This document shows, one piece after another, positions 21,255-42,389 of a stretch of DNA of 64,000 nucleotides. The position numbers and the translations under genes are program-made. The notes beneath the pieces were generated by a model. That model was not told the DNA's origin. It did not search any database and worked only from the letters and a program-made list of their open reading frames with translations. This stretch comes from an uncultured Myxococcales bacterium (GTDB lineage Bacteria; Myxococcota_A; Polyangia; Fen-1088). Each line of letters starts with the position of its first letter. The stretch's first letter is position 1. The stretch covers positions 83,092 to 147,091 of the forward strand of contig CAZJMY010000792.1 in the NCBI GenBank assembly GCA_964546845.1, given 5' to 3'.

Positions 21255-21409
21255 CGCCCGCGCTGACGGCGTAGTGAATTCGTAGTGAGGGATTCGTGCT
21301 CTGGGGTGGTCTCGCGGGATCCTTGTCATCGATTTCGACTTGCCATCGCGGCCCATCTCGCGTACTTACGAAACAAGGCACCACGACGGATAACACTTCC
21401 AAAGGCCTG

Positions 21410-22681: not shown

Positions 22682-23124
22682 CGATCCCCCCGTGGGCCGT
22701 GCTCGCCATCCACGATCCGGCGCGCGATGTCGGCTTCCGTTTCGCCTGCGGAGCCGTCGGCCTTAGCGGCGGACGGGAGGTCGGCCATGAGCTGCTCGAG
22801 CTCCGCCCGTTTCACGCGCTCACCTCGCAGACCGTAGGCTCGGAGCTTGCCCGCGCGGATCCATCTGGTGATCGTTTTGGCGCTGTACCCGGCCAGCTTT
22901 GCGGCGCTCTCGCGGGACAGATATTCCGGCTGCTCCGTGGAAGGAGAGTTGGCTGGAGGAGGCGCCTTGGAGATCCACTCACGGAGCTTCTCTTCGAGTA
23001 TCGTCCGCAGCCGATCGTCCAACCACGATGCCATGCATCTCTCGACGATTGCGAACGGATTCTGACCGTCGGGAACCAGCCGCAGGCGGGCCGGTTGCGA
23101 GGGGTTGTGGTCGCGACCCTTCAC
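22678..23124 (-). CDS. Excisionase-type HTH DNA-binding protein (putative Xis/regulator of the island)
   Basis: 'LSRESAAKLAGYSAKTITRWIRAGKLRAYGLRGERVKRAELEQLM' is an HTH_17-like motif. The stop overlaps the integrase start (ATGA). The true start is uncertain. Confidence 0.65.
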   Translation of the reverse strand: MKGRDHNPSQPARLRLVPDGQNPFAIVERCMASWLDDRLRTILEEKLREWISKAPPPANSPSTEQPEYLSRESAAKLAGYSAKTITRWIRAGKLRAYGLRGERVKRAELEQLMADLPSAAKADGSAGETEADIARRIVDGEHGPRGDR

Positions 23125-23726
23125 GTTGGGCCCCTCCGAAGCGAACCAGGCTCAAGTGCTGGCGCCTGCATGTCCGTCCACTTCGCTGATACCGCCACAT
23201 CGACGACCTCCGGCGCGCGCACTTGGATCGTCATCGCCCCCCAACCTCTAGGGGCGGCGATAAGGACGCCGGTGTGACACCAGATTCTCATGGCCTCAGT
23301 CATCCAACGCGAGGTAGGCGACCGCCGCCGACAAGAAATCGACCAGAATTCGTACACGTCGAGGCGATGCGGGATTTGCCGCCCAAGCACGGACATGCAG
23401 TGCGCGATGTCTTCATCGAGTCTTCCTTTTAAAGGCCCCTCCAACGCCTCGGCGTGACAGGGCGGGCAAACAGGTGACGATACTTTCGGCCGTGGCTTCG
23501 GCATCTCGTCCCTTGGCTCCTCAAACGCCACCTCGGGTCCTGGCGGGACATGCCCATGAGAGAGAAGAGCGCCGTCGGCATGTCTTTTGTGACGCGGACG
23601 GGCCAAGGGCCCGAGTTGGGCGGTTCGGACCCTGTTTTCGCCCCTGTGGGCGACCCTGCCTTTTCGGCCGTTCTTGACCTGTTGAAACGTGGAGCTACTG
23701 TCCCGTCACCGACGGAGGAACTGCCC

Positions 23727-24236
23727 ATGGCGAACCCTGTTTCGGAAGGCGGGCCTGCACAGAAACAGCCCCCCAAGACCGACCTGCGCGGCAAGTTGAC
23801 CCGCGCTCAAGCTGCGGTACGTCTGAACGTCAGCGTTTCCAAGGTTCGGACCATGGAGGGCACCATCCTCCATCCCGAGGTCATCGGCGGCGTCCACTAC
23901 TTCGCGAAGGCGGACCTCGACGACGTCGCGCGCTCCCTTCCGATGGGCACCCGCGCTGGCGCCCGCCTCGACGACGGCCAGATCGCCGCGCGAGTATTCC
24001 GCCTGATCGACGGCGGCAAGGAGCTGCGCGAGATCGTCGAGGAGCTGGAAGTCCCACCCCAGCTGGTCCGGACCCTCTACCACGAGTGGAAGACCGACTT
24101 CGAGGACGGCGAGCAAGAACGCCGGCAGGCCGCCGAGGAGGCCGCTGAACAGCGCCAGGTGCGCCAGTTCGAACGCGACGCCGAGCGACAGTCGCGCGAC
24201 CTCGACCGAATGATGCGCGCCGCCCAGGTGAAGTGA
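23727..24236 (+). CDS. HTH DNA-binding protein (169 aa), paralogue A
   Basis: Start set at the ATG at 23727, preceded by GGAGGAA. 'LTRAQAAVRLNVSVSKVRTMEGTILHPEVIGGVHYFAKADLDDV' is HTH-like. It is followed by a 'GKELREIVEELEVPPQLVRTLYHEWK' module and a charged tail. Confidence 0.6.
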   Translation: MANPVSEGGPAQKQPPKTDLRGKLTRAQAAVRLNVSVSKVRTMEGTILHPEVIGGVHYFAKADLDDVARSLPMGTRAGARLDDGQIAARVFRLIDGGKELREIVEELEVPPQLVRTLYHEWKTDFEDGEQERRQAAEEAAEQRQVRQFERDAERQSRDLDRMMRAAQVK

Positions 24237-24334
24237 CTGGCTGCCAGGGATGCGGCGGAGGCGTAGTTGGCGGAGATGGCGCGCGATCCCGTTGCCGTTC
24301 TGGACTTCAACGACCGGGGAGCCATCGTCGTCCC

Positions 24335-24715
24335 ATGCCAAACACCAAACCCTCTGACGGCACCCAGATCCCACCGTCCGGCCTGACGCGATCGCAAGTC
24401 GCCCACCATCTCGGCGTTGGGGTCACCGCCGTCCACCGGTTGCGGGTCAACGGCGAGCTACACCCTCAGCGCGACGACGCCGGCGTCTGGCGCTATGACC
24501 CAGCTGACGTCATCCGCGCTGCAGCCAAGCGCGGCGTGAAAGGGCCGCGCACGGAAGGGGAAACCGCCGCGCTGGCGTTCGAAATGTTCGAGCTCGGCGG
24601 CGGGCTACGCGAGGTCGTGATGGCACTGCATCTGACGCCCGCGGCGGTGCGAAGCCTCTACGCGGACTACAAGACCTCGCTCTACGAAGCGTCGCCGAGA
24701 GAGAGGCCGCACTAA
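24335..24715 (+). CDS. HTH DNA-binding protein (126 aa), paralogue B
   Basis: It has the same two-module layout as 23727-24236: 'LTRSQVAHHLGVGVTAVHRLRVNGELHP...WRYDPADV', then 'GGGLREVVMALHLTPAAVRSLYADYK'. The start is inferred at the ATG at 24335. Confidence 0.55.
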   Translation: MPNTKPSDGTQIPPSGLTRSQVAHHLGVGVTAVHRLRVNGELHPQRDDAGVWRYDPADVIRAAAKRGVKGPRTEGETAALAFEMFELGGGLREVVMALHLTPAAVRSLYADYKTSLYEASPRERPH

Positions 24716-25636
24716 TTAGTGCAGCCGGGTTCTGGAGATCTGAAGGCTGCCCTTCTCGTCGAGGAAGACCCAAAAGCGACGCTGAACATCCTCGGCGACC
24801 AGGACGGCGTCCACCCCACAGAGCCGCAGCGAGATCGGGCGGGTGATGAACACTCCGAACTGCGCTGTCTCGGTCACGATTCGGTCGAGGGCCTCTTCAC
24901 AACAGAGCTGAAACCCTCGAACCCGCGTCATCACACGGTCGACCAAGCGCCCGACTCTCGTGCTCACTCCGCTGAATGTCTTGCCGAGCCCGGGCGGAAA
25001 GTAGATGGTGCCGTCGTTGGCCTGGATTAGCGTCGTGAAGCCCGCCCTTCTGAAGCGGGCGGCCCTCTCCGCAGTCAGGCTCATCGAACCAGGAACAACG
25101 TTGGGCACTCGTTCTGCGGCGAGGAGCTCCGGCCAATTGCGGTGTACGGTTTCAAAGAGCCCTGGATCATCAAAACTTGTGTGATCGCCGATGTCGACAA
25201 GGTACAGAGCGTCGATCGTTACCGTCACGAAGAGAAGCTCACTGCTGCCTTTCGAAAACCTCTGCCCGGGCTGCCGCCCACCGAGGTGAAAATGGGTGAT
25301 CGCCAGGTCGTTGAACTGTGTGTCAGGCTCTGCGCGGCCGACACCCCTCCCAAGGTAGTGACTCAGGTCCTGCCCACCTTCGGACTCCGTGACGATCTGC
25401 TTGACCGCCTCGATCCTCGCATCGTCCGGACGTGACATGAGATTGTCGGACCAGAGTGTCCGTCGTCTCCGGGGTGTTACGAGACGGTGCTCGACCGTCA
25501 GTAGTTTTGTCAGGGCGCTCGGCTCATGAGCGCCACGGAGCTTTCTCGATCTAGGCCTTCCGATAGAGCGCTTCCGAAGCTCCCTCTCGGCGAGATTCTC
25601 CAGGTCCTCCAGAAAGTCCGCTCGCAGTTCCTTCAC
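24716..25636 (-). CDS. Hypothetical protein (306 aa)
   Basis: A long ORF with ordinary amino-acid composition and no recognised motif. It lies 60 nt downstream of the previous minus-strand gene. Confidence 0.5.
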   Translation of the reverse strand: MKELRADFLEDLENLAERELRKRSIGRPRSRKLRGAHEPSALTKLLTVEHRLVTPRRRRTLWSDNLMSRPDDARIEAVKQIVTESEGGQDLSHYLGRGVGRAEPDTQFNDLAITHFHLGGRQPGQRFSKGSSELLFVTVTIDALYLVDIGDHTSFDDPGLFETVHRNWPELLAAERVPNVVPGSMSLTAERAARFRRAGFTTLIQANDGTIYFPPGLGKTFSGVSTRVGRLVDRVMTRVRGFQLCCEEALDRIVTETAQFGVFITRPISLRLCGVDAVLVAEDVQRRFWVFLDEKGSLQISRTRLH

Positions 25637-25696: not shown

Positions 25697-26260
25697 TTAC
25701 AGAGGACGCATGTCGAAGTTCGGAAAGATTTGGGTGATTGCGCCGGTCTGCGCGAGCCGATCTAGCCGCCCTGCGAGGGTCGAGTTCGTTCTCGCGTGTG
25801 CCAGCCAGGACTCGACTGCAGCACAGATCCATTCGCAGAATTCGGCGACGCCGATGCCGTAGCCGGTTGTCCGCTCTGAGCCGCCCTTCGTCATCGTGCG
25901 CGCCGGGACAACGGGAACGTCCGCGCCGTAAAACGTCACCCGGTTCAGCACTTCGAACATGGCAGATGAATCATCTGTCGCTTGCGGCACATCTGGGTTC
26001 GTCATGAAGTCGCCCTCGTGCAAGAAAGCGCACCTCAGCGCGAACAAGTCATGGCCTGATACGAAGACCTTTCCCTCCGGGTTGCTGAAGTAGGAACTTG
26101 TCCAGCGATCCGCCCAGCGGACGTAACGCCCCGCTGACTGCCCACGCCCAGGCTGCTCGACGGCACCGCAGGCATCGGGCAGCACCAACGCCAACGCTGT
26201 CGCGGCATACCAACTCTTCTTCTGAACGGCGTCCCGCACTCCTCGAATCAGATGTTCCAT
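25697..26260 (-). CDS. Small HEPN-like protein (187 aa) with Rx4H motif
   Basis: An N-terminal helix 'WYAATALALVLPDACGAVE' is followed by 'DLFALRCAFLHEGDF' (R-x4-H followed by E/G), a layout seen in minimal HEPN domains. The assignment rests on the motif only. Confidence 0.5.
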   Translation of the reverse strand: MEHLIRGVRDAVQKKSWYAATALALVLPDACGAVEQPGRGQSAGRYVRWADRWTSSYFSNPEGKVFVSGHDLFALRCAFLHEGDFMTNPDVPQATDDSSAMFEVLNRVTFYGADVPVVPARTMTKGGSERTTGYGIGVAEFCEWICAAVESWLAHARTNSTLAGRLDRLAQTGAITQIFPNFDMRPL

Positions 26261-26314
26261 CGCACGACCTCCTGCTGCCTATTGTCTGTGTGTCGCTGCC
26301 CTCGACGGTGCGCA

Positions 26315-27763
26315 CTATTCCTTGGATGCTCGGCTGCGAACGAGATCTGCAATCGCTGCCGACACATCGCGGCCCTCGTCCATCTTCAAGGTCCCGCGGA
26401 TCACAAGCTGATTCGTCGCGTGGATCGCCTTTGCCAGAAGGTACCGTGCCCGGGACCCAAGCGCGGCGGTCTTCCCCCGTTGCTGGGGTGACCTGCTGTG
26501 TCGGTCGCCGTGCGCGACAGTACTCCTGTGCCCATAGAGTTCCCCAAGGTCTTTGAAGACCTCTCCTTCTGCTGCGAGTAACGCCTGTCCATGCAGACGA
26601 AACCGGTAGGTGATCTCGCCACCTGCATGCGGCACCACTAAACGTTCGAGACCAATCACGGCGTCCAAGAGCGCGTCCCGGGGCGTGGGCGCGACACTCG
26701 ATCGTCCGAACGACCACATCGCGGATGCAACGTCGTCCGATGCTGAGGTGGCATCCAGGTCAGCCAGCAGCTCGCGCACGCGTGCGTGGACCCTCGGATC
26801 AACGTGGATGACTTGCCAACCTTTGGTTTCAAGCCAACCGATCGGCCGGGTCGCTCTATCCTCGGTGGCTCCGAAGTTTGGAGACCCTCGATGGAGGACA
26901 TCGCGGGCGTGGCCACTTGCCGAGCTCACGATCGTCGCAAGTTCGTGAACCGGGATGTCGCGATTCGTCGCGACGAGAATCGCCCACTTGACCTTGTCGA
27001 TCGAGCTCGCCACCTCGGCGACCGGGTCCGTTTCGCAGGGAACCCGAAGCTGAATCCGAAGAAGACGGCTCAGCCTGACCCCATCGTCATCCCGATAGTG
27101 GTGACCGTACTGGTTAAGGAAGACCTGTTGTTCGGGCGTCCACGACCACTCGACGAGACTGATTCCGGGCGCCAGTTCGACTTCCGTCCCGGGATCGGGA
27201 GCGGACATCATGTCCCCGATGTGCACCGCGACGAGCGGACAGAAGGCGGTGACGATCAGCTCGCCGCCCGTCAACAATCCAACCACCTCGTCGGCAGCGT
27301 CATCGAGGGCCGCACTCGCCACGCTCCACGTCACATGGTTGCGGCCAAGGGTCAGGTCTTCGATGGCGGACCGCAGCGCGATGTGACTCAGCGGAGACAA
27401 GACCAGATGACGCCATGTGAATGAAGTCCACGAGTCCTTGGAGGGTTCTGAGTCATCGTCGGTGCGGAGCTCGAGTTTCTGCGCGTTTCGCGCCCACAGG
27501 TACTCGGTAAGTGCCGAGCCGGCCGGGGAGCGTTCGAGCCGATCAGTTAGGAGCCTGCGGAATTCGAGATAGTCCGGAATTTCAAGCTGGGTTTCGTGCG
27601 GGACTCCATCGGGCGCTATGACGCCGCCGCGACGACGTCGTGTCTTCATGCCGTGGCCAGACAGGGCCCGTGCCGCGGACTTCAGCGCCTCTCGCACAAG
27701 GGGCCGAAGCACCGTCGGTTCGAGGTCAAGCGGCTGCCCCTCGGGAAGAATGCGCGTAATCAC
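26315..27763 (-). CDS. ApeA-like protein with C-terminal HEPN domain (Rx4H), about 482 aa
   Basis: The C-terminus reads 'DALLDAVIGLERLVV...YRFRLHGQALL...DLGELYGHRSTVAHGD', containing RSTVAH = R-x4-H in the usual 'LY..RS..VHG' context. The start is ambiguous: GTG 27763 (13 nt after the upstream stop), ATG 27649, or the track's 27895, which would overlap the upstream gene by 119 nt. Confidence 0.65.
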   Translation of the reverse strand: MITRILPEGQPLDLEPTVLRPLVREALKSAARALSGHGMKTRRRRGGVIAPDGVPHETQLEIPDYLEFRRLLTDRLERSPAGSALTEYLWARNAQKLELRTDDDSEPSKDSWTSFTWRHLVLSPLSHIALRSAIEDLTLGRNHVTWSVASAALDDAADEVVGLLTGGELIVTAFCPLVAVHIGDMMSAPDPGTEVELAPGISLVEWSWTPEQQVFLNQYGHHYRDDDGVRLSRLLRIQLRVPCETDPVAEVASSIDKVKWAILVATNRDIPVHELATIVSSASGHARDVLHRGSPNFGATEDRATRPIGWLETKGWQVIHVDPRVHARVRELLADLDATSASDDVASAMWSFGRSSVAPTPRDALLDAVIGLERLVVPHAGGEITYRFRLHGQALLAAEGEVFKDLGELYGHRSTVAHGDRHSRSPQQRGKTAALGSRARYLLAKAIHATNQLVIRGTLKMDEGRDVSAAIADLVRSRASKE

Positions 27764-27776
27764 GATCGGTTCCCGA

Positions 27777-29084
27777 TCATTTCCCCGGCGCGTCGCTCGG
27801 ACTGGCCGCCGGAGGCGTTTGGGCTGACTCACCCAGTCGGCGGGGGAGGCGCCCTGTCCAGAGCTGGTCGCGCAGCCCAAGGTTCCACGCCGCAAGAACT
27901 GAAGAGCGCAGATCAGCGGTCTCCGTGAGCGTCAACTTGCCGCCGAGGAGCTTCGCGACTCTCGCCTGCAGCTTCTCCCTGGCAAAGAGCAACACGACGT
28001 CTCGAACCCGGAACCAGTCGCCACCCAGCTGAGGAACAGGGCGCTCCGCCAGCAGCTCCACGCGAAGCGACCGGTAACCATACGGTGATGTCACGTCCTC
28101 CATGACCTCGCCCAAGAATCCGCGAGCCAACACAAAATCACCAACTGCTACCTTCTTTCCCTGATTCAGCAGCTCGACATAGCGTGAGGCTTCCGTGTTC
28201 GCGTCTAGCACTCGCGCGACTTGCTCGACGGCTACTCCGTGTGGGCGTCCCAGAAGCGTCCAGCAGCGCCGTACCACACACAAGCCAAGCATGCCGATCT
28301 TCGTCGCCTCAGCAATCTCGGAGCGAGCCTCTCCAGTCGATGCGGCTGCGTCCGCGCCCGCGGTGTAGTGGATGGATGCGCTTGGGAGACCGAAGGCCTC
28401 CTCGTAGGTCGTCCCCATCGCAAGCCGCTCGAAATCGGCCATCAACGGCAGGGCGCGCTTGAGCCGTTGACGCGCGCTCGAGCGAAGGCGCTTCCACTTG
28501 CTCGGATCAATAGGTGGCGTGTACGTCGCGTACCACGCCAATCCAGGATCGATCTTCGGTTCGAGTGCACGAATGGCGACCGTCGCTCGATCAATCGTGG
28601 CATTGACCCAGGCGCTTTCGGCTCCATGAAACTCTCGCAGGTCTGCATTGAATCCGGACGCGCCACATAGCTCGTTGAGCAGTAGAAAGTGCGCGTAGTA
28701 GGCTGGCTCGTCCTTCTGGCCAAAAAGCACGAGCTCTGTCAGGAGCTCGCAGAGTCGTCGTGCACGAAGACGCTCCTCCTCGAGCACGATGCCGATCGCC
28801 GTTCGCTCCGTGGAGTCTGCTGGCGTGCCCGCCTTGATGGGTTCATCTCCGAGGAACTCATGAAGACGCATCAAGACCATCGCCGTCTTCTCGACTTCAT
28901 CGAGCGCCGTCCAAAAGACGAAGTCGCGAGGGGCGCCGTGGAACGTGTATCGTCGGAAAGCCTCCTCGTCGATGCTCAGCACCTCGCGGAGCGTCCGCGA
29001 GGCGGGTATCAGAAGCTTTGGGTACCAATCCAAGTGCGGATCCCTGGCGTTGTCGGTGGGTGGCGAAGTATCCGATTCAGTCAT
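27777..29084 (-). CDS. Hypothetical protein (435 aa)
   Basis: The ATG at 29084 overlaps the upstream stop by 8 nt. The protein looks mostly helical and has no recognised motif. Confidence 0.6.
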   Translation of the reverse strand: MTESDTSPPTDNARDPHLDWYPKLLIPASRTLREVLSIDEEAFRRYTFHGAPRDFVFWTALDEVEKTAMVLMRLHEFLGDEPIKAGTPADSTERTAIGIVLEEERLRARRLCELLTELVLFGQKDEPAYYAHFLLLNELCGASGFNADLREFHGAESAWVNATIDRATVAIRALEPKIDPGLAWYATYTPPIDPSKWKRLRSSARQRLKRALPLMADFERLAMGTTYEEAFGLPSASIHYTAGADAAASTGEARSEIAEATKIGMLGLCVVRRCWTLLGRPHGVAVEQVARVLDANTEASRYVELLNQGKKVAVGDFVLARGFLGEVMEDVTSPYGYRSLRVELLAERPVPQLGGDWFRVRDVVLLFAREKLQARVAKLLGGKLTLTETADLRSSVLAAWNLGLRDQLWTGRLPRRLGESAQTPPAASPSDAPGK

Positions 29085-30654
29085 CGTTATTCTCGGTCGA
29101 CTCGTGTGGGCTCGTCGGTGCAGGTGCCGTCATGGCTGGAACGAACTGCTGGAGGGCAGTGACAGGCGCGGGATAGCCTCGCGTCTCTGCCCCGATGGCC
29201 CGACAGGATTCGTATAGTTCGGCGGCGACATTGACGATGTCTACGTAGAACGGCGGCTCGACAAGGCTAGGCAGCCGGTGGAGGCGGTGTAGCGGTTCGC
29301 CGCAGTAGACGAGGTTGGAGCGCTTGAGGCTCATCCACATTCCATGGACGTCGCCGCTCGCAGGTGAAAAGACGAGTCGGTAGAGTTTCTCCACGCCTGC
29401 CTCGTAGGCCAACCGCCGAGTGTCCTTTTTGGTCCAATGCCCAAGCTCAATGTCCAAGAGCTCCGCCGGAAAGTCGCCCAGCTCGTCGGAGAGATCCTTT
29501 GATGTTAGTCCTTCGAGTGAGCGACTTTCTGGATGGTTGTCTTGGAGGTGAAGCATGAGGAGCTTCTCCTGCCCCTCACCATGCTCCTTGAATGCGGCGA
29601 ACTCGCCGGACGTTCCTCGGCGAGCCAAATAGGCGAAGCTGATTGCCGTGTCTGCCATGCAGCGGAGGAAGATGCCGCCGACGTCCCTGGCCCACAGGTT
29701 CGGATCTTCGAAGAGTAGGCAGAGCAACCTGGTCAATCGTCCGAAGAGGCCGAAGAGGACCTCGTCTTGAAGGGGATCGTAGAGGTCGGGCACAAGCTTG
29801 CGAGATAGTTCCTTCATGTAGTGCCGGGCGGCACCGGCATTGTCCCGGAGAACGTCCTGAAGATGGACAGCCTCCTCGTCCGACACGGATGCCGCACCCG
29901 CCCGCGGGTGGAGAGCGGTACAGACGGCTAAATCGTGATTGTGTCGCCAGAAGTGCTTGGGCCACGTCTTGTCGGCCAGGTCAGGGCGGATCTTCGGGTT
30001 GGACACGGACATGTTCACGAGCTGACGAGCAAGCGACTCGACTTGGCACTGCTCGTCTCGAGTGCAATCAATCGGGTACTTCGGAATCAGCTTCACGCCT
30101 TCGATCGTCGATAGGAACTGGACCTTGTTGTGTTGCAAGAACCGCATCAACGGCAGCGCTCGAACCCGGCCGGCGAACTCGTCTTTCCCCGGGAATAGCT
30201 TCACGAAGAGTTGTCGGAGCCGACCGAGTTCGAACACTGGATCGAGCGGTCCCCCGGCAGCGATCGATGCTGGCTGTAGCAGCCACTTCGCCGGGCACTC
30301 GGGATAGAAGGCAAGTAGTCGTCCGACAGGGCGAACGAACGCCGCTTCGACCAGGTCGGCGTGCTCTTCGAGGAACTCGGCTCGGCGCTCCCCAGGAACA
30401 TGGTCGAAATCCGAGATCAGGCCGATCAATAAATGGGGACCCCTGTAGAAGGCGTCGAGTGCGTCCAGGAACTCACGGTACGGAACGTGGCAGCGATCGA
30501 GACCGAACTCGAGCGCAAGAGATCCGATCCAGAGATGTTCGGGAAGTAGGTCGCGAACCCAGTCGAACGGCGCGAAGTTCAGCTCGGCCATCGGGCCCTT
30601 GAGCTTGGAGCCAACCTTCTTGTGCTTCGCCAGTGGTGTGTGTCTCTTTGCCAT
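29077..30654 (-). CDS. Hypothetical protein (525 aa), immediately downstream of pnkp
   Basis: Start moved to the ATG at 30654 ('MAKRHTPLAKHKK'), one nucleotide after the pnkp TAG (30656-30658). The upstream part of the track ORF overlaps pnkp. No motif was recognised with confidence. Confidence 0.6.
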   Translation of the reverse strand: MAKRHTPLAKHKKVGSKLKGPMAELNFAPFDWVRDLLPEHLWIGSLALEFGLDRCHVPYREFLDALDAFYRGPHLLIGLISDFDHVPGERRAEFLEEHADLVEAAFVRPVGRLLAFYPECPAKWLLQPASIAAGGPLDPVFELGRLRQLFVKLFPGKDEFAGRVRALPLMRFLQHNKVQFLSTIEGVKLIPKYPIDCTRDEQCQVESLARQLVNMSVSNPKIRPDLADKTWPKHFWRHNHDLAVCTALHPRAGAASVSDEEAVHLQDVLRDNAGAARHYMKELSRKLVPDLYDPLQDEVLFGLFGRLTRLLCLLFEDPNLWARDVGGIFLRCMADTAISFAYLARRGTSGEFAAFKEHGEGQEKLLMLHLQDNHPESRSLEGLTSKDLSDELGDFPAELLDIELGHWTKKDTRRLAYEAGVEKLYRLVFSPASGDVHGMWMSLKRSNLVYCGEPLHRLHRLPSLVEPPFYVDIVNVAAELYESCRAIGAETRGYPAPVTALQQFVPAMTAPAPTSPHESTENNDD

Positions 30655-30655
30655 T

Positions 30656-33250
30656 CTAGAGCCTCGGATCCACAGGTTCACTTTCGAGCGCCAAGACCCC
30701 GAAAACGCATTCGTGTACTCGTCGAAGCGGCTCGCGCCGAACGAAGCGTTCGAGCGCCTCGACGCCCAGAGCGAACTCTCGAAGCGCGAGGCCGCGCTTC
30801 GCGGAGAGACCGCGGGCGCGTAGCCGCTCCAAGTTCTCGGGGGCGAGGTACTCGGGACCATAGATGATGCGCAGGTACTCGGCGCCGCGGCACTTCACGG
30901 CTGGCTGCACCAGACCGCGGGAGCCGGGAGCGATGAACGCGAGGGGCTTTACGACCATGCCCTCGCCGCCGCCACCGGTGAGGCCCTTCCACCAGGCGAT
31001 GGCCTCCGATTCACTGGCCGCGTCCGTGAGGTCGACGGTCCGCCAGGGCGTCGCCCGCAGTAGGCCCTCGTCCGCAGCGCAGAGGTCCGCGATGAGCGCC
31101 ATGTGCCACGCATGATCCCGGTCGACGTGGACACGGCCTTCGGTCGCCATCAGGTGGAAGGGCGCGAGCTTGAGATCGGAGAGAGACGTCACCTCCCAGC
31201 AGTACCGTCGATAGGCCTCGACGTAACGGCGGATAGCGTCGGCGCGCTCGCGTGTCCGTTCGAGTAACCTGCTCACGCCGGCCGCGACGTCGCCGCCTCG
31301 CTCGGCCGCGGTCGCGAGCGCCGACATAGCCGCGGCGAAAGCCGGCGTGGCCGCGGAACCGACGGCCGCGTACTGCGACCGTAAAAGCTCCTGAGCCTTC
31401 ACCGACCACGGCATCAGCTCGCAGTCCAGGCACGCCCAGTCAGTCTCGAGCTTCCGCCACAGGTCTGTTGCGTCGAAGGCGACACGCACGCGGGCCAGCA
31501 ATCCAGACTCCAGGGCGGATTCACTGAAGAACCGTCGGCCGGTCCGCGTAAAGCAGATGCCGGTACCGCCGTCGGCGACACCGAAGCGCTTGCGCGCAGC
31601 CTCTTCGTCCCGGCACACGACGACCACCGCGCGCGAGCCCATGTGCTTCTCCTCGCACACCACCTTGGGCACGCCCTGACCTCGGAAATACGCGAACGCC
31701 TCCGCAGGATGCTCGAGCAGACCGGGCTGGGTCGTGGTTTCGCTCGGCGACATCGTCGGGGGCAGGTAGATGATCCACTTCGGGTCGACGGCGAAGCGGC
31801 TCATCAGCTCTAGGGCGGCCGTGGCGTTCTCCTCGCGTATGGTCACGTTGCCGCCGAGGCGCGTCTTGATGATTCGCTTGCCGCTCACGTCCTCCATGTC
31901 GAGCAGGTCGTCGTGCACCTGCTGTGCTGTGAGCGCCGGGGCCTGGGCCTCGGGTGGCAGGAACGGCTTCGCGGGCTGGTAGTAGGTGGCCGTCGCCGGG
32001 ACGGACACCAGCTCGCGCTCGGGGTAGCGGAGCGCGGTCAGCCGTCCACCGAAGACGCACCCGGTGTCGATGCAAATCGTGCGGTTCAACCACTCGGGCT
32101 CAGGGACCGGTGTGTGGCCGTAGACGACCATGGCGCGGCCTCGGTACTCCTGTGCCCAGGGGTATCGAACGGGCAGTCCGTATTCGTCCGTCTCGCCCGT
32201 GGTGTCGCCGTAAAGCGCGAAGTCGCGCACCTTGCCGGAGCCGCGGCCCTGCATGTTCGCGGGCAGGCCGGCGTGGGCCACGACGAGCTTGCCGTCGTCG
32301 AGCACGTAGTGGCTGACCAGACCGTCGATGAAATCGGCGGCGCGCCCCGCGAAGGCTGGCGGCTCCCGTTCGATCTGGGCCAGCGACTCGGCGAGACCGT
32401 GCGTGACGCGAACGTCCCGGCCGCGGAGTTTTCGCATCAGCTTCACGTCGTGGTTTCCGGGCACGCAGTACGCCGTCCCGTCGGCCACCATCCCCATGAC
32501 GAGGCGGATGACGTCCGGTGTCTTCGGTCCCCGATCCACGAGATCGCCGAGGAACACGGCCTTGCGGCCAGCCGGATGGCGCGCACGCCAGCCAGAGCCG
32601 CCGTCAGGCGCCGGCTCGGTCGCGGGCTCGACGACGTAGCCGAGCTGCCCGAGGAGCGCGCGGAGTTCGTCGAAGCAGCCGTGGACGTCGCCAATCACGT
32701 CGAACGGGCCGTGGTCCTGACGCCGGTCGTTCCAGAGCGGTTGCCGCTCGACAGCGACGGCGTCGATCTCCTCCTGCGACTCCAAAACGAAGACGTGGCG
32801 GAACCCCTCGTCCCTGAGACGCCGCATCGAGCGCCGCATCTGCTGCGTCTGCTGGCGGACGACGTGGGCGCCAAATTGCCGGTCGGGACGGCCGGCGTTC
32901 CGGTCGTGGCAGAGCCGCTCAGGGAGGGCAAGGACGATAGCGACGGGGAGGCAATGAAACTCGCGGGCGAGCGCGACCAGCGGCTTGCGTGCTTCGGGCT
33001 GCACGTTGGTCGCATCGACAACGGTGAGCTTGCCGAGCGCGAGGCGCTTGCGTGCGACGAAGTGCAGCACCTCGAATGCCTCGTTTGTGACCTCGAGGTC
33101 GTTTTCGTCGTCCGAGACGAGGCCGCGGCACCAGTCGGATGACAGGACCTCGGTCGACTTGAAGTGCTTTCGCGCAAATGTCGACTTGCCGGCGCCCGAC
33201 GGACCGACGAGTACAACCAGAGCCAGGTCCGGGATCTTCAGGCTAGCCAC
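30656..33250 (-). CDS. pnkp: Bacterial polynucleotide kinase-phosphatase (5'-kinase + metallophosphoesterase + ligase-like adenylyltransferase)
   Basis: The kinase P-loop is 'VVLVGPSGAGKSTFA'. The phosphatase motifs are 'VIGDVHGCFDEL', 'FLGDLVDRGP' and 'VPGNHD'. The ligase-type lysine motif is 'CEEKHMGSRAVVVV'. The size (864 aa) and the adjacency to hen1 are as in the characterised Pnkp-Hen1 pair. The GTG start overlaps the hen1 stop. Confidence 0.9.
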   Translation of the reverse strand: MASLKIPDLALVVLVGPSGAGKSTFARKHFKSTEVLSSDWCRGLVSDDENDLEVTNEAFEVLHFVARKRLALGKLTVVDATNVQPEARKPLVALAREFHCLPVAIVLALPERLCHDRNAGRPDRQFGAHVVRQQTQQMRRSMRRLRDEGFRHVFVLESQEEIDAVAVERQPLWNDRRQDHGPFDVIGDVHGCFDELRALLGQLGYVVEPATEPAPDGGSGWRARHPAGRKAVFLGDLVDRGPKTPDVIRLVMGMVADGTAYCVPGNHDVKLMRKLRGRDVRVTHGLAESLAQIEREPPAFAGRAADFIDGLVSHYVLDDGKLVVAHAGLPANMQGRGSGKVRDFALYGDTTGETDEYGLPVRYPWAQEYRGRAMVVYGHTPVPEPEWLNRTICIDTGCVFGGRLTALRYPERELVSVPATATYYQPAKPFLPPEAQAPALTAQQVHDDLLDMEDVSGKRIIKTRLGGNVTIREENATAALELMSRFAVDPKWIIYLPPTMSPSETTTQPGLLEHPAEAFAYFRGQGVPKVVCEEKHMGSRAVVVVCRDEEAARKRFGVADGGTGICFTRTGRRFFSESALESGLLARVRVAFDATDLWRKLETDWACLDCELMPWSVKAQELLRSQYAAVGSAATPAFAAAMSALATAAERGGDVAAGVSRLLERTRERADAIRRYVEAYRRYCWEVTSLSDLKLAPFHLMATEGRVHVDRDHAWHMALIADLCAADEGLLRATPWRTVDLTDAASESEAIAWWKGLTGGGGEGMVVKPLAFIAPGSRGLVQPAVKCRGAEYLRIIYGPEYLAPENLERLRARGLSAKRGLALREFALGVEALERFVRREPLRRVHECVFGVLALESEPVDPRL

Positions 33251-34637
33251 GGCGAAACACCCCCATCTGCGTCGGCGAGCCGGTCGTCGGATCGTTCGGG
33301 CCGACCGGCAGGAATCGGACGGCGTAGCCGTAGCGGGCGGCCTGCTCGGCTGCCCATCCCTCGAACTCGGTCCGTGTCCACTCGAACCGGTGGTCGCGGT
33401 GCCGAAAGCGCCCGGGTGGTAGGCCGGGAAAGTGGACGTTGTACTCGACGTTCGGCGTCGTGATCACCACCGACGTCGGCCGGGCGCATTCGAACAGCAC
33501 GCGTTCGAACGCGCGCAACCTGTCTGGATCGAGGTGCTCGACGACCTCGACAACCACCGCGGCGTCGAACCCTGCGAGGCGCTTGTCTCGGTAGGTGAGA
33601 GCGCCGTGAAGTAGGGTGATGCGCTCACGCCGGCGTGCCGGAAGGTCTTCGAGGCGGAGACGCTCCGTCGCCCGCTCGAGCGCGCGATACGAGACATCGA
33701 CGCCGACGATCTTTTCGAACGTCGTGTCGGCGAGCAGCGCGCGCAGGAACCGTCCCTCTCCGCAGCCCAGATCGAGGACGGACCGCGCCCCCTCCGCCTT
33801 CAGGACGGCGAGTACGGCACCGACGCGTTCGTCGGCGAGGCTGATCCGCCGCTCGACGTCGGCCTCTTCATCGGCGTGCGCGGCCTCGGCGAGGTCGGGA
33901 TCGACGCCTTCGTCCTGCACCAGCCGGGCAAGCGCCTGCCGCGTGAGGCTCTTGAAGTGCTTTAGGTAGCGACCGGCGATGAGGTCCTTCTCGGGATGAC
34001 CCGCCAACCAGCCGTCACCATGACGCAACAGCTTCTCGAGCTCGTCCTGTCCGACGAAGTAGTGCTTGTCGTCGTCGAGAACCGGGATGAGAACGTACAG
34101 GTGGGTCAGCAGCTCCGCGAGCGTCCGCTCGGATCGTAGCTCCACGGTGAAGTAGGCGCCCTCGCCCCATGATGCGAACGCGGTGTCAAGCGGGTGGTGC
34201 TCGGCGTGAACCTCGTAACCGAGTGGCTCGAACAGGCGGCGCAGCAGCCCCTCGCCCCCGCGGCAGGGAAGAACAGCAAGGCGGGCGAGGAGCGGTAGGG
34301 CCCGCTCAACGAGGTCCGGCTTGTCCTGGCATCGACCGGCAAGGGCGGTTCCGAAAACACGCGCGATCGCCACGCTCATGAACGAGGACGCGACGTACGG
34401 GCGGTCGTTCACATATGCATCGAGCGTTCCCTCGCCATCTCCGCGCCCACGTACGAGACCCACCGGATCAACCTCCAGCAAGAGCGCCGCCGTGCACCGT
34501 TCGGCCGACGCCTCCGGATAGAAGACGTGCGCCTTGCCGAACGACAGCTCGACCTGCTGCACACGTCCGGGATGCTTGTGCAGCAGGAATCCCAGGTCGG
34601 TGGCAGGCTGTGCAGTTGTTGAGATGGTGAGAAGCAT
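33243..34637 (-). CDS. hen1: Bacterial Hen1 RNA 3'-terminal ribose 2'-O-methyltransferase
   Basis: Start moved to the ATG at 34637 ('MLLTISTTAQPATDLGFLLHKHPGRVQ', the typical bacterial Hen1 N-terminus), with a GAGGA SD overlapping the upstream stop. The SAM motif is 'VLDLGCGEGRFL'. The C-terminus reads 'TTPNVEYN...FRHRDHRFEWTRTEF'. The 116 upstream codons in the track are Arg/Ser-rich and were rejected. Confidence 0.9.
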   Translation of the reverse strand: MLLTISTTAQPATDLGFLLHKHPGRVQQVELSFGKAHVFYPEASAERCTAALLLEVDPVGLVRGRGDGEGTLDAYVNDRPYVASSFMSVAIARVFGTALAGRCQDKPDLVERALPLLARLAVLPCRGGEGLLRRLFEPLGYEVHAEHHPLDTAFASWGEGAYFTVELRSERTLAELLTHLYVLIPVLDDDKHYFVGQDELEKLLRHGDGWLAGHPEKDLIAGRYLKHFKSLTRQALARLVQDEGVDPDLAEAAHADEEADVERRISLADERVGAVLAVLKAEGARSVLDLGCGEGRFLRALLADTTFEKIVGVDVSYRALERATERLRLEDLPARRRERITLLHGALTYRDKRLAGFDAAVVVEVVEHLDPDRLRAFERVLFECARPTSVVITTPNVEYNVHFPGLPPGRFRHRDHRFEWTRTEFEGWAAEQAARYGYAVRFLPVGPNDPTTGSPTQMGVFRRG

Positions 34638-34644
34638 TTGATCC

Positions 34645-35187
34645 TCAGCGTCCGGTAACGAACTCGTAGATGACGCCTTCTTCGAGGTGCGCGAGCGTCG
34701 GCGGCTCGAGGGAAGCGAGCGACATTCGCTCGCGCCGGGGTTCCTCGAGGTCCTTCGTGGACAAGAATCGGCCGTCGTGGCGGTAGAAGACGCCGATCGA
34801 GCGGACGCGCCCGCGTGCGGGAGCGCCCTTGAAGAAGGCGACCCAGTCCTCGACGCCGGCCAGGGCCGCCGCCTCCTTGCGGTCTTCCTTACGGCGGCGC
34901 GCCTTCGTGCTCTGCTCGATCGCCCGCGCGATCTTCGCCTCGCTCCACCCGCTCGCGCGGCGGTCGCTGGCGATCCGGTCCGCATGGGCTCGAGGGTCGC
35001 GATGGGACGGGCCAGTGCCGATCGCAGCTCCGCAGTCGCACATCCCGGTCGTGCCGAGCACGACGATGTCGCGCGCCGGGCCCGGGCCCGCGAGGCGCTG
35101 CCGGTGCACGCCGCAATGGCGCGACCATTCCTCGAGCGCGTCCACGTCTGCGGTACGCGCCACGAACACCGAGATCATCGTACACAT
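34645..35187 (-). CDS. Hypothetical protein (180 aa), first gene of the hen1-pnkp operon
   Basis: The ORF ends 7 nt before the hen1 ATG. No recognised motif. It lies about 160 nt downstream of the sigma-54 promoter match. Confidence 0.55.
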   Translation of the reverse strand: MCTMISVFVARTADVDALEEWSRHCGVHRQRLAGPGPARDIVVLGTTGMCDCGAAIGTGPSHRDPRAHADRIASDRRASGWSEAKIARAIEQSTKARRRKEDRKEAAALAGVEDWVAFFKGAPARGRVRSIGVFYRHDGRFLSTKDLEEPRRERMSLASLEPPTLAHLEEGVIYEFVTGR

Positions 35188-35358
35188 CGCCGGCTATCCC
35201 TTCCGCCGCCCTTCGACCCGCCACGTACCGCCGGCGTCCTGGGCACATGAGAGTGAGGTGCTCAGGAACCGGGGGATGACGTCAAGCTGCGTGCGCGTGA
35301 TGACCTGGTGGGCGGGCGACATCGTGGTGGTCGCGTCGTTGGTCATGGGCGGCTGAGG

Positions 35359-35374
35359 TGCAGCCGACGTGCCA
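35359..35374 (-). promoter_or_regulatory. Sigma-54 (-24/-12) promoter match TGGCACG-TCGG-CTGCA reading toward the hen1-pnkp operon
   Basis: The minus strand reads TGGCACGTCGGCTGCA against the consensus TGGCACG-N4-TTGCW. The GG-N10-GC spacing is correct and there is one mismatch (T to C). It lies in the divergent intergenic region next to the sigma-54 activator gene rtcR. Confidence 0.7.
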
Positions 35375-35436
35375 TGGGCATCCCGGTCACTCCGAACCCG
35401 GAACCAGCGGGGCGTCGCGAGGGAGTGCGGCGCGGG

Positions 35437-35454
35437 TTTATCCAAATGGATAAA
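35437..35454. promoter_or_regulatory. AT-rich perfect inverted repeat TTTATCCA-AA-TGGATAAA just upstream of rtcR
   Basis: An 8-2-8 palindrome in a short AT-rich patch (35437-35473) that stands out from the GC-rich surroundings. It ends 20 nt before the rtcR ATG. A TATACT hexamer lies at 35459-35464. Confidence 0.55.
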
Positions 35455-35473
35455 TTTGTATACTATTAGCTAG

Positions 35474-37093
35474 ATGTCACGCCGCGGCCTGACCGTGATC
35501 GGCTTCCTGGGATCGACCCTGGACCAGGGAAAGCGGGGGCCCGCCCGGTGGGAGCGGTGGCGGCCGACCGTCTCCCTTTGCCAGCACCAGGACCTACTGG
35601 TCGACCGGCTCGTTCTGCTCCACGGCTCCCGATTCGAGGGCCTGGCCAAGGCTGTCGCGGTCGACGTCGCGCAGGTTTCACCCGAGACGGTCGTGCAGCT
35701 CGAGGTCATGGAGATCTCCGACCCGTGGGACCTGGAAGAGACCTACGGCGCACTCCGCGATTTCGCGAAGCGGTATCCGTTCGATCCCTCCCGCGAGGAC
35801 TACCTGGCTCACATCACCACGGGAACGCATATCGCGCAGATCTCGCTGTTTCTTCTCGTCGAGTCGCGACACATCCCGGGGCGTCTGGTTCAGACGTCGC
35901 CGCCGCCCAACCCGGACGGGAACGCCTCCGGCTCCTACACCATCATCGACCTCGATCTCTCCCGCTACGACAGCATCGCGCGACGCTTCCAGAAGGAACG
36001 CACCGAGGGGCTGTCTTTTCTAAAGGCAGGCATCGACACAAAGAATGCAGCCTACAACCGCCTGATCGAGCGCGTCGAGCAGGTCGCGATCGCATCGCGG
36101 GATCCAGTGCTGCTCTGCGGACCGACGGGGTCGGGCAAGTCACAGCTTGCCCGGCGGATCTACGAGCTCAAGAAGACGCGCAGGCAGGTGGCCGGCGAGC
36201 TCGTCGAGGTCAACTGCGCGACCCTGCGCGGAGACGCCGCGATGTCGACGTTGTTTGGCCACGTCCGCGGTGCCTACACCGGGGCAGCCGAGGCGCGCGG
36301 CGGGATGCTGCGCAAGGCCGACAAGGGCGTGCTGTTCCTCGACGAAATCGGCGAGCTGGGGCTGGACGAGCAGGCGATGCTCCTGCGGGCCATCGAGGAC
36401 AAGACCTTCTTCCCGGTCGGCTCCGACAAGGAGGTCCAGAGCGACTTTCAGCTCATTGCCGGGACCAACCGGGATCTTGCTGAACGTGTTGCGGGCGGCC
36501 GATTCCGGGAGGACCTGCTTGCGCGCATCAATCTGTGGACTTTCGTGCTTCCAGGTCTTCGTGACCGCCCCGAGGACATCGAGCCGAACCTCGACTTCGA
36601 GCTCGAGCGCGCCGGCGACGACTTGAAGCACCGCCTCACCATGAGCCGTGAGGCACGCGAGCGCTATCTGCACTTCGCCCGTTCGGCGGAAGCGCTCTGG
36701 AGCGGGAACTTCCGCGACTTCGGTGCGTCGCTGCGCCGGATGGCGACACTCTGCGACGGTGGCCGCATCAGTGTCTCCGAGGTCGACGACGAGGTAGAAC
36801 GACTGCGTACCCACTGGCGCGCTGAGCGCGGGCCGGTCAGAGACCTGCCCGATTCAGACGAGACCCTCGACCATTTGCTAGACGCCAGGCGCCTCTCTAC
36901 CCTCGATCGTTTCGACCGCATCCAGCTGGAGGAAGTCGTCCGCGTCTGCCGGCACGCGCGCTCACTGTCCGAAGCAGGCCGCGTCCTGTTCGCGGCGTCG
37001 CGCGCGGCGCGCGCCACGACGAACGATGCCGATCGCCTGCGCAAGTACCTGGCGAAGTACGGCCTCACGCTGCAAGCGATCCAGGCCGAATGA
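35474..37093 (+). CDS. rtcR: RtcR-type sigma-54-dependent transcriptional activator (CARF-like N-terminal domain + AAA+ + C-terminal HTH)
   Basis: The N-terminus 'GFLGSTLDQGKRGPARWERWRPTVSLCQHQDLLVDRLVLLH...HITTGTHIAQISLFLLVESRHIPGRLVQTSPP' is collinear with E. coli RtcR. The AAA+ Walker A is 'LLCGPTGSGKSQLA'. 'GAYTGA' is the sigma-54 contact loop, and 'LFLDEIGEL' is Walker B. Confidence 0.9.
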   Translation: MSRRGLTVIGFLGSTLDQGKRGPARWERWRPTVSLCQHQDLLVDRLVLLHGSRFEGLAKAVAVDVAQVSPETVVQLEVMEISDPWDLEETYGALRDFAKRYPFDPSREDYLAHITTGTHIAQISLFLLVESRHIPGRLVQTSPPPNPDGNASGSYTIIDLDLSRYDSIARRFQKERTEGLSFLKAGIDTKNAAYNRLIERVEQVAIASRDPVLLCGPTGSGKSQLARRIYELKKTRRQVAGELVEVNCATLRGDAAMSTLFGHVRGAYTGAAEARGGMLRKADKGVLFLDEIGELGLDEQAMLLRAIEDKTFFPVGSDKEVQSDFQLIAGTNRDLAERVAGGRFREDLLARINLWTFVLPGLRDRPEDIEPNLDFELERAGDDLKHRLTMSREARERYLHFARSAEALWSGNFRDFGASLRRMATLCDGGRISVSEVDDEVERLRTHWRAERGPVRDLPDSDETLDHLLDARRLSTLDRFDRIQLEEVVRVCRHARSLSEAGRVLFAASRAARATTNDADRLRKYLAKYGLTLQAIQAE

Positions 37094-37631: not shown

Positions 37632-37975
37632 CCGGGGAGGGGTACCCTCCGGGTATTTCCGCGCGGCCCGAACCTCGGACGGGACACTCCGACGAACGAG
37701 GGTGGGTGGCCCCGAAGCCCATGTTCGGGAGGTCCGACGGCGCTGGGGATCGCTCTCGCGCGTTCGAGCCAAGGCGCCCTTGGAAAGCACGCACATCCGT
37801 GATTTCTAACCAGTTTCCGCACGCCGATGGTACCTTTGAGATGTGCGTTGTCGTGGGGTGGGGAGGAAGAGATTTTGACGCAGCTCGATGGCGTGACCAA
37901 CCTAGTGGTCCTTACGAATCTGACCGTGCTAGGAATCGGGCCGCTGCTGCAGTGGTTCCACGAGCCAGAGCGCCA

Positions 37976-41814: not shown

Positions 41815-42099
41815 CAGTGTGAGCGCCGCAGCCCGGGGCACGTGCGCATGAGGGCCGACCGGGGCCATCACCCCATCACCCGTGCGAAAGCGCCACCCTA
41901 GCCGCCACGTCGCGAAGCAGGGCCCGCGCCTCGGCCACGTCGCCCCGGTCGAGGGCCTCGATCACGTGCGCGACGAGGGCACTTACACTCTGACACGCCG
42001 GGTCCGCTCCAGACCGCTCCGGTCCGTCCGCCACCGCCGCAAGTCCGCGATTCTCCGCGACCTGTCCGTCGCTGTCCGGCGCCGTCCCAGCGTGTCCCT

Positions 42100-42135
42100 C
42101 CGGAGGCCGCACCTTCAAGTCCCGTCCACCCCGCA
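42100..42135 (+). repeat. att-type direct repeat, copy B (degenerate; T-stem no longer pairs)
   Basis: The sequence is CCGGAGCCGC... in full CCGGAGGCCGCACCTTCAAGTCCCGTCCACCCCGCA. It is 33/36 identical to 21415-21450, and the three differences (GGG to ACC) destroy the T-stem. Confidence 0.75.
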
Positions 42136-42389
42136 GATATCGTTGTGATTCCTGGGTCCGCCTCGAAGGCGACCCACCTCCGTAACCCCATGCGTACGGG
42201 GCCGGGTGCCGACACCCTTGCGTCGGACGGCCCCGCGGTCGAGGAGCCGAGTCCCGTTGCAGCAGATGTTCCGAGGCCCTCACGCGGACAGTCTCACCAA
42301 GCTCGCGGGGAGAGGGAACCTGGGTCCCGCCACTTCTACCTGAGACGGGGGATCCGCGGGTCCGCGTGTCGATGCAGTAAGCTCATGCC

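Follow-up and report, generated by a model that had tools for sequence, protein, structure and literature searches.

A probable composite of an RtcR-linked Hen1-Pnkp RNA-repair operon and a mobile cargo array in an uncultured Myxococcales bacterium

Introduction

In Escherichia coli and Salmonella, a divergently oriented rtcR gene and a sigma-54 promoter drive the RNA end-healing and end-sealing genes rtcBA, and the signal of RtcR is given, in work cited in PMC11090510 and PMC9879122, as tRNA fragments that terminate in 2',3'-cyclic phosphates. Another bacterial RNA-repair system, Pnkp-Hen1 (known from Clostridium thermocellum and Anabaena), is encoded by an overlapping hen1-pnkp pair and was reconstituted according to work cited in PMC12776372. 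HEPN ribonucleases (RNases) are metal-independent, leave 2',3'-cyclic phosphates, and have their active-site motif at a helix end/loop start (Anantharaman et al. 2013, PMC3710099). CoCoNuTs bring RtcR and HEPN RNases together in RtcR-headed, co-oriented superoperons, for which a cyclic-phosphate feedback loop has been predicted (Bell et al. 2024, PMC11090510). The locus analyzed here lies in a 64,000-nt stretch of DNA (hereafter, the window) from an uncultured Myxococcales bacterium (assembly GCA_964546845.1, contig CAZJMY010000792.1, positions 83,092 to 147,091 of the forward strand), and it consists of rtcR and a divergent minus-strand gene string g180–hen1–pnkp–g525–g435–g482–g187–g306, the genes without an established name being designated by the length of their products in amino acids (aa).

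Compared to the RtcR-RtcBA operon, the window displayed the same divergent rtcR plus sigma-54 promoter, and its close relatives still held rtcB-rtcA at this promoter, but the window itself contained no rtcBA and had g180 and hen1-pnkp added. Compared to the Pnkp-Hen1 system, it had the same overlapping pair of full-length equivalogs, but this pair was placed under RtcR/sigma-54, was joined to an Rtc operon, and was followed without a gap by defense-type genes. As in the CoCoNuT superoperons, an RtcR-type CARF activator headed a long co-oriented string with (here, candidate) HEPN RNases and ancillary defense genes; unlike them, the window harbored no McrBC or CoCoNuT components, its RtcR was a bona fide RNA-repair RtcR (NF038308 equivalog), and its HEPN-type genes belonged to other, uncharacterized families and were preceded by repair enzymes. 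An earlier note on this DNA, made from the sequence alone, knew of no described system in which rtcR controls hen1-pnkp together with HEPN and three or four unknown genes; superoperons joining RtcR and HEPN had already been predicted (PMC11090510), and thus the RtcR-HEPN feedback concept is not new, while a version with Hen1-Pnkp was not found and appears undescribed in the literature searched. As in defense islands and integrative-element hotspots, conserved flanks enclosed variable cargo, att-like tRNA repeats accompanied an integrase and HTH_17 genes, a PD-T4-7 homologue was present, and MADS, SIR2, and AbiEii were neighbors; unlike in those, the cargo adjoined a regulated repair operon directly at its stop codon and had the same orientation as this operon.

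General features of the locus

An open reading frame (ORF) check of the window gave eight minus-strand ORFs plus rtcR, and the junctions, read off the sequence, confirmed the gene order, coordinates, and spacings in the earlier note (Table 1): 7 nt separated the g180 stop codon from the hen1 ATG; hen1 and pnkp overlapped by 8 nt (GTGGCTAG); 1 nt lay between the pnkp TAG and the g525 ATG; g525 and g435 overlapped by 8 nt (ATGACTGA); 13 nt separated the g435 stop codon from the g482 GTG; and gaps of 54 nt and 60 nt preceded g187 and g306, respectively. A terminator scan detected no terminator-like site at any gene junction, and the counts from the sigma-70 promoter and terminator scan of the window were the same as in shuffled sequence. 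The base composition broke at the pnkp stop codon: the genes from rtcR to pnkp had a GC content of 0.66 to 0.70 and a GC content at third codon positions (GC3) of 0.80 to 0.86, and the corresponding values were 0.60 to 0.62 and 0.70 to 0.72 for all five cargo genes, including the first of them, g525 (GC3 = 0.72).

The locus is best explained, with a probability of roughly 0.6, as a composite whose two units have separate histories. Of these, unit 1 would be an RNA-damage-responsive operon, the promoter of which would in this soil lineage normally drive rtcB-rtcA-g180-hen1-pnkp; in the window, rtcBA was deleted with a scar left behind, RtcR would now drive g180-hen1-pnkp, and broken RNA would be healed, sealed, and 2'-O-methylated by the products. 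Unit 2 would be a compositionally foreign mobile cargo array that starts from the pnkp stop codon, most likely encodes independent anti-phage effectors, and has at its end HTH_17 regulators, then an integrase and an att-like tRNA fragment. Because neither a gap nor a terminator lies between pnkp and this array, read-through from the RtcR promoter probably renders at least the first three cargo genes damage-inducible as well, and RtcR, repair genes, and cargo may be functionally linked through such read-through.

Repair operon and deletion of rtcBA

RtcR, Hen1, and Pnkp, already named in the earlier note, proved to be full-length members of NCBIfam equivalog families: (i) RtcR matched NF038308 (1.6e-240; 5-529/530), together with the Pfam RtcR domain PF06956 (7e-81) and Sigma54_activat PF00158 (9.5e-48); (ii) Hen1 matched TIGR04074 (7e-215; 1-462/462) and, as expected of its family, combined the Pnkp-associating region Hen1_L (1.7e-113) with an S-adenosylmethionine methyltransferase domain, its gene adjoining pnkp; and (iii) Pnkp matched TIGR04075 (E = 0) over 2-851/851, with AAA_33 (1e-28), Metallophos (1e-13), and PNKP_ligase (4e-182) in one polypeptide.

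The scar ORF consisted of the two ends of rtcBA: with locus L001 (RtcR 89% identical to that of the window) as the reference, residues 1-17 matched the RtcB N-terminus (the first 16-17 codons of rtcB) and residues 17-50 (the last 34 codons) matched the RtcA C-terminus, and no other rtcB or rtcA was found in the window. A scan seeded with g180 gave about 17 metagenome loci of the same lineage, all of which read rtcR<>rtcB-rtcA-g180 and most of which continued into hen1-pnkp; their identities to the window were 88-92% for RtcR, 89-96% for RtcB, 86-93% for Hen1, and 87-93% for Pnkp. Since these relatives keep rtcBA and the scar ORF joins an rtcB end to an rtcA end, the window was derived by an in-frame rtcBA deletion, and the arrangement in which rtcR directly faces g180-hen1 is, judged from these alignments, a secondary one caused by the deletion. 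Loci L095, L097, and L101 ended after g180 without hen1-pnkp, which points to hen1-pnkp as an accessory addition at the 3' end of the Rtc operon.

From the GTDB species representatives, the 80 best Pnkp loci were taken as a broader sample, with the genes within 10 kb of pnkp taken into account. Here hen1 nearly always adjoined pnkp and a true rtcR was present in none (0/80), which indicates that RtcR control of hen1-pnkp is unusual and lineage-specific. A Hen1 protein at least 90% identical to that of the window was labeled Polyangiaceae, and the lineage to which this RtcR operon is specific is probably that family.

The candidate sigma-54 promoter (TGGCACGtcggCTGCA) carried one mismatch to the consensus, and one-mismatch matches were not rare (1.29 expected by chance in the window). 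Its -24 and -12 elements were conserved relative to L001 although the surrounding intergenic region had diverged, and they were located in front of rtcB in L001 or of its scar in the window. The near-consensus promoter proposed in the earlier note thus held as a conserved predicted site, but the first ORF behind it was the 50-codon scar instead of the 180-aa gene; ancestrally, it is the predicted rtcB promoter. In both the window and L001, the -12 element lay only about 16 nt upstream of the rtcB or scar ATG (35346-35374, minus strand, in the window), implying that the leader is very short. An AT-rich patch located between the rtcR start and the promoter contained a perfect 8+8 palindrome (TTTATCCAtttGGATAAA, read as TTTATCCA-tt-TGGATAAA), which was conserved only partly in L001 and was possibly an activator or integration host factor (IHF) site.

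The loss of rtcBA could also be taken as the mark of inactivation, the repair operon then being a decaying remnant and its remaining genes passive passengers of the island. Frameshifted rtcR, hen1, or pnkp calls in L001, L094, and L169, possibly assembly errors, would accord with such decay as the deletion itself does, but rtcR, g180, hen1, and pnkp of the window were all full-length with full-length family matches, the deletion was in frame, and the promoter core was intact, so that we regard this explanation as very improbable.

Two further features were recorded in the related loci. Split or frameshifted gene calls for pnkp, rtcR, or hen1 were located at L001:7323-9912, L094:3961-5597, and L169:8577-10008, and they may represent assembly errors or real pseudogenes. 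A 72-nt tRNA-like gene was located just past the rtcR stop codon at L001:1174-1245(-), L095:1533-1604(-), and L101:3744-3815(-), and it was absent from the window. The copies were near-identical yet their anticodons differed (CTG, CTA [amber], and ATG), and the copy in L101 had one compensatory change within the anticodon stem; differing anticodons are odd for a decoding tRNA, and the gene product may be a tRNA-like RNA that is linked with the Rtc system.

The variable slot behind pnkp

Homologues of the 180-, 525-, 435-, 482-, 187-, and 306-aa genes were found near pnkp in none of the 80 diverse Pnkp loci. The sequence comparison was further applied to five close-relative loci (Pnkp at least 82% identical), namely the window, L001, L094, L168, and L169, which aligned as far as the pnkp stop codon and not one base beyond. 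Each of them harbored a different content in this slot: (i) g525, g435, g482, g187, and g306 in the window; (ii) a g482-family gene (after an 85-nt gap) and then an nSTAND NTPase in L001; (iii) an unknown 251-aa gene with an RNCLAH motif, 3 nt past the stop codon, in L094; (iv) a 197-aa gene and two large genes on the reverse strand, along with genes for a reverse transcriptase and a transposase, in L168; and (v) a DUF4145 protein (PD-T7-4-like; after an 85-nt gap) and then a PDC-S39-like protein in L169. With DUF4145 being listed as HEPN in PMC3710099, a HEPN-type gene in pnkp orientation occupied the slot in three of the five loci (g482 family in the window and L001, DUF4145 in L169); L094 was not counted, an Rx4H in one 250-aa sequence being expected by chance in about one of three cases (amino-acid-frequency estimate).

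Members of the g435, g482, and g187 families were also found, in the absence of RNA-repair genes, on other mobile elements, on plasmids, and in prophages. The g482 relative was located (i) straight after pnkp, without g525 or g435, in L001 and L002, where it was followed by the nSTAND NTPase, HTH_17, DUF3631, an integrase, and tRNA-Leu; (ii) behind a PDC-M21/Dsr1-like system and g435, on an integrase/HTH_17/DUF3631 element without repair genes, in L003; (iii) on an HTH_17/DUF3631 element in L004 to L006 (with an integrase and without repair genes in L004); and (iv) within the order g435-g482-g187 adjoining AbiEii/AbiEi in L162 and L163, the latter being cut within g482. The adjacency g435-g482 recurred with a 12-14-nt gap in the window, L003, and L162, and the 54-nt gap between g482 and the g187 that follows it in the window was also present in L162 and L163. 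Relatives of g435 occurred on their own, namely in a prophage, in a plasmid-like element, and within a Polyangiaceae restriction-modification island (L088 to L092), and g187 was found alone in L164 to L167 and in phages. The g435-g482 pair of the window was 79-89% identical to the copies without repair genes in L003/L162 and 68% identical to the pnkp-linked copy in L001, while the repair genes were 82-89% identical between the window and L001. The cargo of L001 ended at an integrase beside tRNA-Leu, and that of the window ended at an integrase beside a tRNA-3' fragment.

The position behind pnkp is, on this comparison, a hypervariable cargo slot or hotspot with a conserved anchor gene. The earlier note had proposed a self-contained module and had named missing co-conservation with hen1-pnkp as a ground for refuting it; the 0/80 co-conservation contradicted the module on this ground, as did the occurrence of the families without repair genes and the different cargo in the five close relatives. 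Repair enzymes and cargo do not form an obligate, co-evolving system. What remained of that interpretation were the mobile defense setting, the RtcR and promoter facing hen1-pnkp, and the conserved Rx4H motifs.

Several observations weigh against a composite origin. The 1-nt pnkp/g525 junction, together with the overlaps and short gaps down to g482, resembles one translationally coupled operon, and such packing differs from the scar that site-specific insertion typically leaves. In all five close-relative loci (5/5), pnkp and the first gene behind it have the same orientation, and the presence of HEPN-type genes in three of the five slots suggests a recurrence higher than expected of unrelated cargo, five being a small sample and HEPN genes being common in defense islands. 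Moreover, hen1-pnkp itself joined the 3' end of rtcBA-g180 in part of the lineage, and accretion at this site may be functionally coherent.

Table 1. Coordinates of the features in the window, with the RtcR-linked locus listed first and the flanking elements thereafter
Feature	Position	Strand	Description
rtcR	35474..37093	+	Sigma-54 activator; CARF + AAA+ + HTH (helix-turn-helix) domains
Palindrome	35437..35454		Perfect 8+8, in AT-rich patch
Sigma-54 promoter (predicted)	35359-35374	-	-24 TGGCACG, N4, -12 CTGCA; one mismatch to consensus
rtcB'-'rtcA deletion scar	35194..35346	-	In-frame fusion ORF, 50 codons
g180	34645..35187	-	180 aa; small Cys-rich protein, HTH-like helix
hen1	33243..34637	-	RNA 3'-terminal 2'-O-methyltransferase
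pnkp	30656..33250	-	Polynucleotide kinase, phosphatase, ligase
g525	29077..30654	-	525 aa; DUF5677 protein, opens low-GC cargo array
g435	27777..29084	-	435 aa; uncharacterized mobile-element/prophage family
g482	26315..27763	-	482 aa; alpha/beta N-terminal domain + all-helical C-terminal domain with RSxxAHG
g187	25697..26260	-	187 aa; small protein with LRCAFLHEGD (Rx4H), family common in phages
g306	24716..25636	-	306 aa; PD-T4-7 homologue
Mobile-element backbone	21410..24715		HTH_17, HTH, HTH_17, and integrase beyond cargo array
HTH_17	24233-24715	+	Pfam
HTH protein	23550-24236	+	Pfam
HTH_17	22678-23124	-	Pfam
Tyrosine integrase	21410-22681	-	Pfam
att-like repeat copy A	21407..21450	+	tRNA-3'-end-like, 44 nt; adjoins integrase
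att-like repeat copy B	42093..42140	+	Degenerate direct copy
MADS-type cluster	4328-21254	+	PADLOC E-values 1e-47 to 1e-118
Two mad2-like methyltransferases	4328-6571, 6409-8586	+	PADLOC
mad6/PglW-like	9854-14119	+	PADLOC
mad7	13933-15783	+	PADLOC
mad8	15552-21254	+	PADLOC
SIR2_2 protein	39861-40901	-	
Schlafen AlbA_2 protein	41089-41814		
AbiEii nucleotidyltransferase	42638-43240		Beyond att-like repeat copy B

HEPN-like features of g482 and g187

The Rx4H motifs were the most conserved features of the g482 and g187 families. An exhaustive HMMER search, superseding a word-index search that had given only 6 relatives, assigned 833 representatives to the g482 family at E <= 1e-3, many of them composed of the C-terminal domain alone. 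R413 was the sole invariant residue in 83 diverse members, with H418, Y410, G371, D363, and R354 being at least 90% conserved, and R413 and H418 were both invariant in a second set of 59 sequences. In the AlphaFold2 (AF2) model of g482 (predicted local distance difference test score 91.8 overall and 95 for the C-terminal domain), helix 83-98 of this domain ended at the motif (domain R94 and H99), and a long helix 107-136 came after it; the motif thus agreed in position with the HEPN active site described in PMC3710099, and the placement of Rx4H at a HEPN catalytic position, which the earlier note had called for, was borne out for g482 in the predicted model. Acidic positions upstream of the motif were D363 (at least 90% conserved, as above) and the E of a GLE motif, which was the consensus residue. 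In g187, R76 and H81 (LRCAFLHEGD motif) were invariant in 22 homologues, and RC[AS][FY]LH was retained in all of these and in 41/41 viral relatives at 22-40% identity; the residue after the motif R was Cys, unlike the usual polar N, D, or H.

No HEPN family was matched significantly by sequence or fold. For g482, a weak match to Pfam HEPN_RiboL-PSP (0.0025) was obtained in one of the 83 family members, and the PDB profile search gave no match. Foldseek gave no match with E < 0.5 for the full-length model against PDB and BFVD and none with E < 1 for the isolated C-terminal domain against PDB; the best TM-score for this domain, a non-significant 0.42/0.47, was obtained with the HEPN domain of sacsin (3o10), and the HEPN toxin SO_3166 (5yep) was also listed. 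The N-terminal alpha/beta domain had no fold relative in PDB or BFVD. Comparison by hhalign of the C-terminal profile with the L169 DUF4145 protein and the L094 251-aa protein gave nothing, these single-sequence targets providing low power. In an hhalign comparison of the g187 and g482 families, the motifs aligned, but the probability was 0.7% and the E-value 0.084; g187 had no Pfam or PDB match.

The motifs from which the earlier note assigned both proteins to HEPN were present and conserved in both families. Like the HEPN abortive-infection RNases (ApeA and the Abi-type 'RxxxxHG' proteins; PMC3710099), g482 had an all-helical domain in which Rx4H stood at a helix end/loop start and an acidic residue upstream of it was conserved, and its context was a defense island; unlike them, it had no significant HEPN match and carried an N-terminal domain without a PDB or BFVD relative. 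g482 is a probable HEPN RNase, and g187 is a possible one.

If both were RNases co-expressed with Pnkp-Hen1 from the RtcR promoter, the locus could form a damage-and-repair circuit: 2',3'-cyclic-phosphate cleavage ends would activate the CARF domain of RtcR in a positive feedback, Pnkp-Hen1 would reseal and 2'-O-methylate host RNAs, and an abortive-infection RNase would become a self-limiting, reversible arrest. The cleavage chemistry of HEPN RNases (PMC3710099) and the comparable RtcR-HEPN feedback proposed for CoCoNuT superoperons (PMC11090510) agree with this, as do the conserved Rx4H in both families, the co-oriented, tightly packed, terminator-free stretch from pnkp to g482, and the HEPN-type genes straight after pnkp in L001 and L169 (L094 offering the motif only). 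We nevertheless consider it unlikely: the HEPN fold was unconfirmed in sequence and structure searches, L168 had no HEPN-type gene after pnkp, co-conservation was nil in the 80 diverse loci, the cargo was compositionally foreign, the three cargo families were all found without repair genes, and the g435-g482 pair was nearer to its repair-free than to its pnkp-linked copies.

A rather unlikely variant treats the 3' end of the operon as a growth point that recruits RNA-damage functions, at first hen1-pnkp and then interchangeable HEPN-type RNases, into a feed-forward circuit. RtcR would raise both the RNase and Pnkp-Hen1; repaired host RNAs would be 2'-O-methylated and immune to re-cleavage, and phage RNAs would still be cut. 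If true, abortive infection would here be reversible and self-sparing, and g482 (and g435-g482-g187) would be a new RNase-based defense family with an unmatched N-terminal sensor domain. The composite of two units is preferred to both circuits.

The other cargo genes

The profile checks suggested in the earlier note identified two of the cargo proteins and left g435 and g482 without a family match. g525 matched Pfam DUF5677 (PF18928; 5.5e-17, above the curated cut-off) and the PADLOC model 'DitA' (1.1e-16; residues 7-464), for which a literature search found no primary description; g306 matched PADLOC PD-T4-7 (8.3e-37; residues 3-296 against profile positions 5-306/337). PD-T4-7 was reportedly recovered as a single gene in its source study. 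The g435 family comprised 28 clusters and had no match in Pfam, NCBIfam, PADLOC, PHROGs, or the PDB profile search; g482 likewise had none in Pfam, NCBIfam, PADLOC, or PHROGs, and PDB sequence-profile searches with g482, g435, g187, g525, and g306 gave nothing useful. g187 matched phrog_18591 (1.4e-25) and had 41 relatives in IMG/VR viral contigs, while IMG/VR scans with g525 and g435 gave no relatives.

PD-T4-7 is reported to be a toxin-antitoxin (TA)-like abortive-infection defense recovered from E. coli (Vassallo et al. 2022, PMC9519451), and its listing among such TA-like systems argues against the view that the five cargo genes are one multi-gene defense system acting together and unrelated to RNA repair. 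The overlaps and close spacing of these genes would fit a single system, and so would the recurrence, with similar gaps, of the g435-g482 adjacency (window, L003, and L162) and the g482-g187 adjacency (window and L162); but g525 and g306 were found together with the other genes in no locus except the window and its duplicate L007, g482 occurred without g435 in L001 and L004, g435 alone in L088 to L092, and g187 alone in L164 to L167 and in phages, and the co-occurring copies were 79-89% identical and may represent a single block that was inherited as such, and not independent associations. A single system of this kind is quite unlikely, and a set of independent, probably anti-phage effectors in unit 2 is the preferred interpretation. 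In L003, homologues of the PADLOC candidate system PDC-M21 (B, 3e-54; A, 7e-39) fused to a Dsr1-like region (3e-30) were located at L003:4132-8686, before g435-g482.

The g180 family

g180 was always located behind rtcA in the about 17 related loci, and it was fast-evolving, with 44-84% identity within the lineage versus 86-96% for its neighbors. The alignment of its family contained as invariants an N-terminal MC, CDCG, and a KGWSEAKIAR helix, which in a profile search matched the HTH of archaeal Tfx (1nr3; E = 0.006); weak RepB_primase_C matches were present in 9/26 family members, and more distant homologues sat outside Rtc loci. g180 is read as a putative small nucleic-acid-binding accessory protein. 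Fast evolution beside slow neighbors, together with invariant motifs, is often seen in conflict-engaged proteins.

Implications

In this locus, an Rtc operon first took up Hen1-Pnkp and later lost RtcBA. If the juxtaposition with the cargo is merely physical, the locus is a clear case of a conserved regulated operon whose stop codon anchors a hotspot of defense genes; if read-through from the RtcR promoter matters, an RNA-damage sensor, RNases, and RNA-protecting repair would be joined in one circuit, bearing on whether Pnkp-Hen1 and Rtc serve to counter foreign ribotoxins or to manage self-inflicted RNA damage. Either way, three uncharacterized mobile, probably defensive families (g482 with at least 833 representatives, g435, and g187) and the fast-evolving Rtc-operon protein g180 are defined.

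Mobile-element backbone and neighboring defense genes

The mobile-island setting proposed in the earlier note was supported: the integrase, the HTH_17 genes, and the att-like repeats bracketed the locus, with MADS on the left and SIR2, AlbA_2, and AbiEii on the right (Table 1). HTH_17 plus integrase genes also flanked g482 or g435 homologues in L001, L003, L004, and L089. The att-like repeat had two matches in the window with 0 expected by chance; its copy A was 100% identical to L003:18703-18746, located beside another integrase in this unrelated locus, and no full tRNA or other RNA gene was found in the window (Rfam and ARAGORN). Integration of the island into the pnkp 3' end was considered and rejected, since a search for att direct repeats between the 3' end of pnkp and the integrase end in the window found none, as did one for repeats of the tRNA-Leu 3' end in L001.

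To the right of rtcR, a low-GC3 region (37487-43240) contained unknown 409-aa and 163-aa genes and a gene for a HEAT-repeat protein.

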